Assembly (NCBI GenBank): GCA_964519305.1
Contig: CAZFHY010000018.1
Coordinates: 11,628 to 75,627 of the forward strand
Length of the DNA stretch: 64,000 nt
From: Candidatus Undinarchaeota archaeon
Lineage (GTDB): Archaea; SpSt-1190; JASMDC01
Direction: 5' to 3'
Shown: positions 16,976 to 18,671 of the stretch, piece after piece
How the letters are laid out: each line of letters opens with the position of its first letter
Position numbering within the stretch: position 1 is the first letter of the stretch
Made by a program: the position numbers and the translations under genes
The notes under the pieces: model-generated
The model's database searches: none
Seen by the model: only the letters and a program-made list of their open reading frames with translations
Told to the model about the DNA's origin: nothing

Positions 16976-18361
16976 TCACATCTGTTTCGCAATGAGCCGG
17001 TCCAGTTCGAGGATGAAGGCCTCAAGGACCTCCTCGTCGATGTAGGCCCCTGCTGCGATATCGTGGCCCCCGGACTGGCCTCCCCAGCGCTCGACAGCAC
17101 CGCTTAGCGCTGCTGCGAGGTCGACGCCCGCACGGACCATACGCTGTGTGGTGCGCGCCGAGAGCTTGATCCGTCCGCCCGAGTCGCGGGCCGCGGCAAG
17201 GATTACGCGCTCGTGGTCTACCATACGCGAGCCCAGGCCCATACCGGCGATGATGCCGACAACGGTAGGTGAGATGGTCTCGGACTCGAACAGCTGGACA
17301 TAGCGGCCGATGGGTGTCGCGCCCTTCTCACGCAGCTCGTCGAGGCCGGTACGAAGCTGCAGGCGGTGATAACGGAGCATAGCGCTCGCTTTTGCGTAAT
17401 AACCCTCTTCCTGCAGGCAGACGCGAACACCGACGGCGGCAAGGCCCCAACGGCCGCAGGCGTTGAGGAGGGTTGAGTGTTCTGTGGCGTCGCGCATTTC
17501 TGTGCCCTTACGCCGCGTTGGGAGGACGTAGTACTCCTTGACCAGGGCCTCGATGCCCCACTGCGGAACGCGACGTTCGATGCAGAACCTGACCAGGGCG
17601 TCGCCAAGCTTGATCCGGTCCTCTTGCGAGAGGTCGTGATAGGTGAGCGCCCGGTCGTCCTCATCACGCGTGGGGATGCCCTCGGCATCAAGGAACGTGC
17701 GACAGGCGTCAACATCGTTGGAAAGTCCCGGGATGTACGGAGAGGACGCGTAGGAGAGCAGGACGGCTAATGGTCGCGTTTCGCGGCCGAAGAACGATAT
17801 CCCACGTGTTGGTTCGACCGTGCCGTCCTTCTCACCGTCATCGACAGGGATACGGTTCATAGCCTCGAGTCGGCCTGTACGACGGTCCTGCATGTCGCCT
17901 ACGGCACCTACGATGGCTATTGGGGCGGTCTCTCTCAGACCGGCCTCCCTGGCCACTAAGTAGGCCACAGTTGACCCCGAGCACTGAGAACCGCCGTCCA
18001 CGCCGAAAAGCTGGGGATTGAGGTGCACTCCGTCGAGATCTACACCCGTCATGGGATGGTGATGGTCGAGCACTACTGCAGGGATGCCGAGTTTGGCGAT
18101 AAGATCGAGCTGACCCGAGCCAAGATCGACGAACACGGCGAGGTCACGGTCCTTGGCGGCCCGTTCCACCTCGGGAAGCGTCTCTGCCGCGAGCTGGCGA
18201 AGGTGGACGCACTTCGGGTCCGTGCCGAATGAACGGAGAGAGTTGACAGCGATGGCCGCGGAGGTTATACCGTCGGCGTCGATGTGGCTTACCACGAGCG
18301 GGTTCTTGGCATTCTCCATTGCAGAGAGCGCCTCGCGGACCCGTGCGTCACGTGACTCCAT
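16976..18361 (-). CDS. Archaeal RecJ-like (GAN/Cdc45-related) DHH exonuclease
   Basis: SHIDADG, VDLGSGQ, LDHH, GAVGDMQ, LNACGR, SARTT, GGHDIAAG. Confidence 0.9.
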   Translation of the reverse strand: MESRDARVREALSAMENAKNPLVVSHIDADGITSAAIAVNSLRSFGTDPKCVHLRQLAAETLPEVERAAKDRDLAVFVDLGSGQLDLIAKLGIPAVVLDHHHPMTGVDLDGVHLNPQLFGVDGGSQCSGSTVAYLVAREAGLRETAPIAIVGAVGDMQDRRTGRLEAMNRIPVDDGEKDGTVEPTRGISFFGRETRPLAVLLSYASSPYIPGLSNDVDACRTFLDAEGIPTRDEDDRALTYHDLSQEDRIKLGDALVRFCIERRVPQWGIEALVKEYYVLPTRRKGTEMRDATEHSTLLNACGRWGLAAVGVRVCLQEEGYYAKASAMLRYHRLQLRTGLDELREKGATPIGRYVQLFESETISPTVVGIIAGMGLGSRMVDHERVILAAARDSGGRIKLSARTTQRMVRAGVDLAAALSGAVERWGGQSGGHDIAAGAYIDEEVLEAFILELDRLIAKQM

Positions 18362-18453
18362 GATGGTACCTTGTGAACGATCGGTTATACCCGTTCGCCC
18401 CTACTGGGCGCGGTATGCAAACCTATTTAAGGAATATGCGAACACGGGAGGAA

Positions 18454-18580
18454 GCGGGGGTACCCGAGCTGGCCAAAGGGGCCGGACTTAAGATCCGGTG
18501 GCTTAGGGCCTTCACGGGTTCGAAACCCGCGCCCCCGCACGTACGTGGGAGCAAGAGCGAAAGTCCCGTCCCCCGCACCA
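18454..18580 (+). tRNA. tRNA-Leu(UAA) with a 39-nt non-canonical intron at 59/60 (18525-18563); CCA encoded
   Basis: Acceptor GCGGGGG/CCCCCGC, anticodon arm CCGGA-CTTAAGA-TCCGG, long variable arm; BHB-like motif with central helix UUCG/CGAA and bulges AAA and AGU; splicing restores ACGGG-TTCGAAT-CCCGT. Confidence 0.92.
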
Positions 18581-18582
18581 AT

Positions 18583-18656
18583 GCCCCGATAGCTCAGCTG
18601 GCCAGAGCGCTTCCTTGGTAAGGAAGAAGTCCCGGATTCGAATTCCGGTCGGGGCT
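18583..18656 (+). tRNA. tRNA-Thr(GGU)
   Basis: GCCCCGA/TCGGGGC acceptor, CTTCC-TTGGTAA-GGAAG anticodon arm, TTCGAAT T-loop; 2 nt after tRNA-Leu. Confidence 0.95.
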
Positions 18657-18662
18657 CTTACC

Positions 18663-18671
18663 TTTTTTTTT
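18663..18671 (+). terminator. Oligo-T terminator of the tRNA operon
   Basis: Run of nine T just after tRNA-Thr. Confidence 0.7.

Follow-up and report, generated by a model that had tools for sequence, protein, structure and literature searches.

A probable intron at position 59/60 of an uncultured marine archaeon's sole tRNA-Leu(UAA) gene, beginning with a probable relic copy of the downstream exon

As outlined in the sections of the review PMC4090602 devoted to them, the non-canonical bulge-helix-bulge introns of archaeal transfer RNA (tRNA) genes are short, form a helix of 4 base pairs (bp) between two bulges, go with the EndA endonuclease and the RtcB ligase, and make tRNA finders fail; position 59/60 of the tRNA is listed there among the known sites, with reference to Marck and Grosjean 2003 and Sugahara 2008. 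In all of these features, the position included, they resemble the gene described here, the sole tRNA-Leu(UAA) gene in the 3.6-Mb genome of an uncultured marine archaeon. It occupies positions 18454-18580 (+) of a stretch of 64,000 nucleotides (nt), hereafter the window, which is C18:11628-75627 (contig and positions) of the archaeal assembly G000 (3.63 Mb, 42 contigs, 59.7% guanine plus cytosine (GC)), the source genome. We consider it probable that the gene carries a protein-spliced intron at 59/60 and that the intron contains a copy of the gene's own 3' exon left over from a duplication. The locus differs from the introns of the review in that all five such genes of the genome use 59/60, in that the Leu(UAA) intron adds the exon copy and in that the genus is placed in a class of small-genome archaea. 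The original prediction, derived from the letters of the window, had stated that non-canonical intron positions occur in some archaeal lineages, and the listing of 59/60 in the review, four further tRNA genes of the source genome and the archaeal genome G031 agree with it.

Repeats of tRNA pieces have been described in several other settings. In the mobile-element model for Caldiarchaeum subterraneum (Sugahara et al. 2012, PMC3293823), recombination at tRNA ends, repeats of tRNA pieces and intron gain come together in a way that resembles the present case; there, however, the repeat is a 5' fragment located 1.8 kb away with a recombinase gene in between, whereas here it is a 3' repeat which lies 23 nt from its twin, inside the intron, with no element left. 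The same paper states that direct evidence tying disrupted tRNA genes to mobile-element integration was lacking. The attachment (att) repeats left behind by integrases of the SSV or pNOB8 type, treated in the same source, are likewise tRNA 3' repeats starting in the T arm, and a bona fide case exists in the source genome at tRNA-Leu(GAG); at tRNA-Leu(UAA), in contrast, neither an integrase nor foreign DNA is found and the proximal copy is degenerate. Furthermore, repeats of 4-30 bp at or near both intron borders have been read as insertion footprints, four archaeal introns included (Rogers and Bendich 2025, PMC11782384, in the part concerned with such borders), whereas the repeat reported here measures 15-16 nt, is in register with both splice sites and reproduces a module of T-stem and acceptor strand. 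The literature searched describes no bulge-helix-bulge intron with an in-register exon copy. The 59/60 site is already known; what sets this case apart is the in-register copy of the downstream exon inside the intron, an unusual footprint.

The 5' exon (18454-18524, +), whose start was given by ARAGORN and Rfam, comprises the acceptor 5' strand, the D arm, the anticodon arm with TAA, the long variable arm, the T-stem 5' strand and T-loop positions 54-59. It is followed by the 39-nt intron (18525-18563, +) between tRNA positions 59 and 60 and by the 3' exon (18564-18580, +), which holds position 60, the T-stem 3' strand (CCC at 18565-18567), the acceptor 3' strand, the discriminator A and the encoded CCA, and which matches the intronless Leu paralogues. 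After excision of 18525-18563 by script, ARAGORN called an 88-nt tRNA-Leu(UAA), whose last 23 nt recur unchanged at the ends of Leu(UAG) (C6) and Leu(GAG) (C29), two genes without intron. In the local minimum free energy (MFE) fold, the T-stem 5' strand (18514-18518, +, with GGG at 18516-18518) pairs with 18565-18569 and forms the outer helix h of the splicing motif, and TTCG (18519-18522, +; T-loop positions 54-57) pairs with CGAA (18558-18561, +) to form the central 4-bp helix H. The CGAA is unchanged in G001, the sister species and the only genome of the same genus that was compared. Between helix H and the T stem lies the 3-nt 3' bulge AGT (18562-18564, +), predicted to be cut after 18563, so that T18564 becomes tRNA position 60. 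At the 5' splice site, AAA (18523-18525, +) takes the place of the second bulge according to the geometry rule for bulge-helix-bulge motifs, with the predicted cut after 18524; in the fold it is part of a larger internal loop, the 5' site lying on a loop side of 5 nt. The intron further contains an inner hairpin (18534-18549, +), in which 18534-18538 are paired with 18545-18549. Since no helix directly follows AAA, the motif corresponds to the relaxed hBH form, in which one bulge is degraded, and not to the strict form of the bulge-helix-bulge with a 3-nt bulge on each strand.

The elements listed in the original prediction (GGG/CCC, AGU, UUCG/CGAA and AAA) were all found where it had put them, and excision of the 39-nt intron it had proposed at 59/60 restores the tRNA. 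Of its bulge-helix-bulge-like motif the helix and the 3-nt 3' bulge stood, whereas AAA turned out not to be a clean 3-nt bulge. In the precursor, the T stem would thus act as outer helix, and the TTCG of the T loop would form the central helix with the CGAA of the intron. The 3' site would lie within the 3-nt bulge, and a looser loop would contain the 5' site. A single alpha-type EndA would cut both sites, RtcB would join the exons, and the product would be a regular tRNA-Leu(UAA) with encoded CCA. With high probability the intron is real; splicing itself is what the sequence leads us to expect.

Both ARAGORN and Rfam call an intronless tRNA-Leu(UAA) at 18454-18539/40, a call which is probably an artefact caused by the exon-like repeat at 18525-18540. 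At 40.2 bits its Rfam score is the lowest of the 42 tRNA matches above the cut-off in the genome; Rfam marks a non-standard T-stem pair and an inserted base before the acceptor 3' strand, and a continuous stack of a 5-bp T stem and a 7-bp acceptor stem is not obtained in the called molecule. Taken at face value, the two calls would speak for a gene that is not spliced at all, the functional tRNA being the unspliced 18454-18539/40 and the perfect downstream copy an att-type remnant. A layout of tRNA, spacer and second 3'-end copy indeed exists at tRNA-Glu(UUC) of the same genome, where the first copy is good. At tRNA-Leu(UAA), however, the T stem built with the first copy contains an A-C mismatch, one surplus base intervenes before the acceptor stem, the stack of the copy-based tRNA counts 13 positions, and in the sister species the acceptor of this copy carries G3-U70. 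It is the downstream copy that is invariant and followed by CCA; moreover, the spacing of CGAA, 3-nt bulge and T-stem strand fits the splicing geometry exactly, and the same geometry occurs in four genes for which no alternative reading exists. We therefore regard an unspliced functional tRNA as extremely unlikely. Very unlikely, too, is a gene with two products, mostly the spliced tRNA-Leu(UAA) and a fraction matured unspliced via the copy, tRNA-like and ending near 18539. G3-U70 is the alanine identity pair; if there were two products, the sister-species molecule carrying it could be charged with alanine while reading leucine codons.

The splicing geometry was found to recur elsewhere in the genome. 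Both strands were scanned for motifs with a 4-bp helix, 3-nt bulges, cuts after the second bulge base, at least one flanking helix of 3 bp and introns of 11-130 nt, and each of the 1.95 million candidates was spliced by script and then run through ARAGORN. The scan unveiled four further genes with a 59/60 intron, namely Leu(CAG) with 33 nt (C8:41128-41248), Leu(CAA) with 23 nt (C8:45552-45659), Gln(UUG) with 31 nt (C1:58994-59100, minus strand) and Ser(UGA) with 32 nt (C8:36179-36296). None of the four is called by plain ARAGORN, and Rfam returns only sub-threshold partial matches at two of them, with 21.6 bits for Leu(CAA) and 18.7 bits for Gln. All five genes share one geometry, in which T-loop positions 54-57 provide one strand of helix H, the T stem is the outer helix and the 5' bulge consists of positions 58 and 59 and the first intron base; this is the geometry of the canonical 37/38 site moved to the T arm. 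Helix H co-varies with the T loop, TTCG occurring with CGAA, CGGA or CGGG and the TTCA of Ser with TGAA. The local MFE folds of Leu(CAG) and Leu(CAA) display the full motif, the former with a 2-nt 5' bulge and the latter with two 3-nt bulges. In the genome scan, neither a non-canonical position besides 59/60 nor a gene holding a canonical and a 59/60 intron together was observed.

Many additional ARAGORN calls from the scan were judged false by eye, among them Asp (C8:90249), Cys (C18:67873), His (C17:21432) and Arg at C16 and C20. A tRNA-Ile(GAU) gene was not found in the source genome by ARAGORN, Rfam or the splice-motif scan. Two ARAGORN calls of tRNA-Tyr with 81-82 nt (C6:104608 and C15:8251) are without Rfam support; at C7:110489-110608 there is a Tyr gene interrupted by a canonical intron. 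Lone tRNA 3'-end fragments were seen at C28:27581-27599 and C3:7174-7191.

The exon-like segment occupies the first 16 nt of the Leu(UAA) intron (18525-18540, +). As recognized from the in-register match, it is an imperfect direct repeat that takes in the 3' strands of the T stem and of the acceptor stem, the discriminator and the base after it. Compared with the first 15 nt of the 3' exon (18564-18578), it shows 13 identical bases in blocks of 4 and 9, separated in the copy by one extra base, and the match does not stop with the paired strands but also covers the discriminator and its 3' neighbour. None of 40,000 mononucleotide shuffles of the intron and none of 40,000 random strings of 60% GC reached the in-register match, and the near identity of the intron's 5' part to the true 3' exon, already noted in the original prediction, is thereby borne out under both null models. 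Between G000 and G001, the copy changed at 1 of its 16 sites and the true 3' exon at none of 17 (p = 0.48); the one change is that which creates G3-U70. Searching the intron against the genome by blastn-short gave only chance matches of 11-14 nt. Most likely, the first 16 nt of the intron go back to a doubling of the tRNA 3' end by which the intron was created or remodelled, an origin which we infer from the pattern of the match.

The comparison with the sister species separates exons and introns clearly. The locus in G001 is 96% identical to that of the source genome, and all 5 differences within the 127-nt gene fall into the intron (5/39 intron sites against 0/88 exon sites; p = 0.0023), none of the 71 nt of the 5' exon and none of the 17 sites of the 3' exon being changed; in the flanks, 21/152 sites upstream and 24/98 downstream differ. 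All four other 59/60 introns are present in G001 as well, and over the five intron-bearing genes 19/158 intron sites changed against 2/423 exon sites (p = 1e-9). Several of the changes preserve pairing: the inner helix of Leu(CAA) shows a compensatory double change from G-C to A-U between the two genomes, and in the inner hairpin of Leu(UAA) the G001 changes at 18536 (C-G to U-G) and 18546 (G-U to G-C) keep the strands paired. Site 18536, which is C in the source genome and T in the G001 type, belongs to the copy.

A metagenome scan with a 27-nt exon pattern gave two contigs, both with the G001 allele. Of four DNA runs examined, X14 and X17 carry the G001-type allele, and X9 and X12 a third allele; among the contigs listed for the latter two, the difference within the gene is confined to 18543, to which one X9 contig adds 18554. 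An intronless allele was not present among the listed contigs of the four runs and the two metagenome contigs. Contigs that diverge from the window at 18529 represent the Leu(UAG) paralogue. A contig scan with the neighbouring DHH protein returned a single relative.

Of 24 Leu loci from other genera, 21 contain a tRNA-Leu(UAA) without intron according to ARAGORN, its T arm being regular by eye; counted by genome, an intronless tRNA-Leu(UAA) was found in 12 of 15 genomes of the same class, the other three giving no match. A pattern survey of 17 class genomes, which covered genes with a TTCRAA-type T loop and TCC at the beginning of the 3' exon, validated 59/60 introns in G000 and G001 alone; intronless genes gave rise to two further ARAGORN calls, both artefacts. 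The unrelated archaeal genome G031 contains strict 59/60 introns of 52 nt in Leu(UAG) (locus L030) and 47 nt in Leu(CAG) (locus L016). In a further genome, G030 (locus L020), the tRNA-Leu(UAA) match breaks off directly behind the anticodon, pointing to a gene that has a long intron or is split.

With respect to the origin of the repeat, four loci of the genome encode a PF00589 integrase (C14, C29, C6 and C17). At tRNA-Glu(UUC) (C6:7059-7202), a second copy of the last 21 nt with one mismatch lies 48 nt downstream and is followed on the same strand by a 433-residue tyrosine integrase with a zinc ribbon (C6:5699-7000, locus L040); a third copy of this tRNA 3' end was not detected in the assembly. 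At tRNA-Leu(GAG) (C29:16499-18133) an element is integrated, with a tyrosine integrase of 333 residues about 600 nt downstream; its 23-nt att repeat starts at the CGAA of the T loop and recurs at C30:17330-17352 (loci L038 and L039). This element extends across a contig break, and at both of its ends a motif of about 15 nt, rich in A and T, flanks the att core on the element side. A third integrase is located beside tRNA-Cys. The layout at tRNA-Leu(UAA), two copies with a short spacer, here of 23 nt, is that of tRNA-Glu(UUC), with the difference that at Leu the proximal copy is degenerate and the distal copy keeps its native context, a tRNA-Thr following 2 nt on.

Since TTCGAA is a palindrome, a second copy of the T-loop piece is able to base-pair with the first and start helix H. 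A duplication of the 3' end would in this way itself supply the central helix, whereas the 3' bulge would require the addition of 2 nt. Possible routes to the duplication are a tandem duplication, an insertion that doubled its target, or an integrase event at the T-loop CGAA which was aborted or has decayed; between these we cannot decide. A tandem duplication of the whole T arm was also considered and is a weak possibility, the alignment of 18514-18540 with 18543-18578 being carried nearly entirely by the 13 bases already known. The birth of the intron from a duplicated 3' end as an att-type scar, which had been proposed from the start, is thus plausible in view of the in-register repeat and of the integrases at the Glu and Leu(GAG) tRNA genes; a strict att origin is unproven, because the locus lacks an integrase or mobile DNA and the copies lie only 23 nt apart.

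The enzymes assigned to the proposed reaction are encoded in the genome. An alpha-type EndA of 193 residues (C6:63800-64378) contains both Pfam domains and scores 102 bits against TIGR00324 (cut-off 59.6), and the RtcB ligase is found at C8:90706-92001. Searches with PF01974, PF02778, the protein itself and the NCBIfam beta model NF007085 recovered this one EndA locus and no second EndA-like gene or beta subunit, although a very divergent beta subunit could escape them. Among solved structures, the best matches are the alpha4 enzyme of M. jannaschii (1a79) and the catalytic subunit of N. equitans (3iey_A); across a basic C-terminal insert just before the catalytic His, EndA aligns without gap to the latter and with a 6-residue gap to the former, which lacks the insert. 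According to Kaneta et al. 2018 (PMC5829648, in the sections used here), alpha4-type EndAs of DPANN archaea with a C-terminal L3 loop go with more disrupted tRNA genes. The source genome resembles those described in having a single alpha gene, the shared basic insert and several disrupted tRNAs, and it fits this trend. It differs in that the insert is equated with L3 by the wording 'C-terminus region' of the paper and our own alignment, and in that the oligomer and the substrate range are predicted only. The broad-specificity endonuclease that the intron had been said to need may accordingly be represented by the single alpha-type EndA with its Nanoarchaeum-like C-terminal insert, the substrate range being a prediction from sequence.

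The original prediction had envisaged a decoy cloverleaf of the unspliced RNA. Constrained folds gave -51.2 kcal/mol for this decoy and -53.1 kcal/mol for the splicing fold, a difference of about 2 kcal/mol. For the acceptor 5' strand, the nearest-neighbour ensemble gives pairing probabilities of 0.92-0.98 with the true 3' exon and 0.02-0.06 with the copy; the T-stem 5' strand, in turn, pairs preferentially with the four C/G bases of the copy (0.20-0.55). In these models the full decoy cloverleaf is consequently not favoured, and what persists of the idea is a decoy T hairpin, formed with the T-stem part of the copy, which competes with the splicing motif. Besides misleading tRNA finders, the copy should by this competing hairpin hinder formation of the motif.

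One might suppose, then, that the exon-like segment is functional, either as a switch between the splicing fold and a decoy T hairpin or cloverleaf, which times or throttles maturation of the only UUA-reading tRNA, or as a protection of the gene, whose integrase target it would disrupt or double. The small energy difference between the two folds, the populated decoy T hairpin, the retention of the segment in both species and in all metagenome contigs seen, and the targeting of tRNA 3' ends by the integrases of the genome would fit such a role, and the idea that introns shield tRNA genes from integration has been published (cited in PMC3293823 and PMC3241643, in the passages available). However, the intron changes at the rate of its flanks (see the counts given above), one of the changes falls into the acceptor strand of the copy, the four other 59/60 introns of the genome have no exon-like segment by free local alignment, and the two species are too close for retention to imply selection. 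With regard to integration, the intron is placed at the 5' border of the 23-nt att core, 17 to 19 nt of which stay intact and contiguous; for a decoy against integration, as the original prediction had phrased it, we found no evidence. A functional segment appears quite unlikely to us, and a decoy function of the copy is unsupported.

Several observations weigh against a spliced intron with a duplication relic. On the side of splicing, the folds show no h' helix adjacent to the 5' site, and in the ensemble helix H reaches only 0.02-0.15 and the true T stem 0.01-0.07, with the pairing of the T-stem 5' strand to the copy at the level given above; a minimal T-arm piece folds into the decoy hairpin, a slightly longer one into the splicing motif. 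Only a single EndA gene was found, and alpha4-type EndAs are classically held to cut strict motifs only (PMC5829648, in the part dealing with enzyme types). The sequencing runs carrying the locus comprise 20 listed DNA runs and no RNA run, which is why the excision is only inferred. On the side of the duplication, no integrase or mobile DNA was found at the tRNA-Leu(UAA) locus, C18 being free of PF00589 matches; the 23-nt spacer between the copies has no other match in the genome, and neither the copy nor the Leu att core is matched exactly in viral contigs. The Leu(UAA) intron is carried by only two closely related species, and no intermediate form was seen. Free local alignment revealed no exon repeat in any of the four remaining 59/60 introns of the genome, and of the introns in G031 the one in L030 begins unlike its 3' exon, as judged by eye only; a duplication is thus not the general origin of these introns.

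The statistical support for the copy is likewise not uniform. A free local alignment of the intron with both exons gives a p of only about 0.03, because the intron is rich in C and G, and shuffling the intron does not always abolish the unspliced ARAGORN call, which persists in 299 of 5000 mononucleotide shuffles (6.0%) and in 427 of 5000 dinucleotide shuffles (8.5%). These values, which also count against the duplication, leave room for the view that the resemblance is not homology and that the C-rich 5' part of the intron arose by drift or by convergence through pairing with G-rich exon strands or through the inner hairpin, of which 18534-18538, a part of the copy, form one strand. Such a resemblance is contradicted by the failure of every shuffled intron to attain the match in register, by the inclusion of the unpaired discriminator and the next base, which pairing does not need, and by the start of the copy exactly where the 3' exon would be expected to start. 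We hold a non-homologous resemblance to be unlikely and retain the duplication relic as the probable origin of the segment.

An AT-rich, TATA-like box, recognized by eye at 18424-18431 (+) about 23 nt upstream of the tRNA, is a putative promoter and differs by one base in the sister species; we assume here the archaeal promoter consensus. A tRNA-Thr(GGU) gene (18583-18657, +; ARAGORN and Rfam, 66.3 bits), which has no encoded CCA, starts 2 nt past the encoded CCA of tRNA-Leu(UAA), and because of this 2-nt spacer the two genes are probably co-transcribed. A run of nine T (18663-18671, +) is the likely archaeal transcription stop, and a terminator scan of bacterial type gave no match there. Directly upstream of the tRNA pair, on the opposite strand (16976-18361, -), lies a gene for a 461-residue protein with DHH, DHH-CID and DHHA1 domains, 93% identical to its counterpart in the sister species; we take this layout to be the RecJ/Cdc45-like (GAN-type) architecture. 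The assembly is 99.8% complete with 4.3% contamination. The two genomes of the genus measure 3.6-3.8 Mb, with about 60% GC as measured for G000 only, and all 15 genomes of the same class that were compared measure 0.6-1.2 Mb; for a lineage grouped with archaea of small genome size, the genomes of this genus are unusually large.

For the annotation of such genomes the finding has a direct consequence, as finders give a defective intronless tRNA at this locus and the genome seems to lack Leu(CAG), Leu(CAA), Gln(UUG) and Ser(UGA). The relaxed motif, the competing hairpin and the single alpha-type EndA together make up a natural test substrate for the range of DPANN-type endonucleases. The origin of protein-spliced tRNA introns is an open question, for which the copy-bearing intron provides a concrete candidate footprint, situated in a genome whose integrases use the same segment from the T loop to the 3' end. 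The copy may be the first preserved birth scar of a protein-spliced tRNA intron that arose from a duplicated 3' end, the palindromic T loop giving the central helix.

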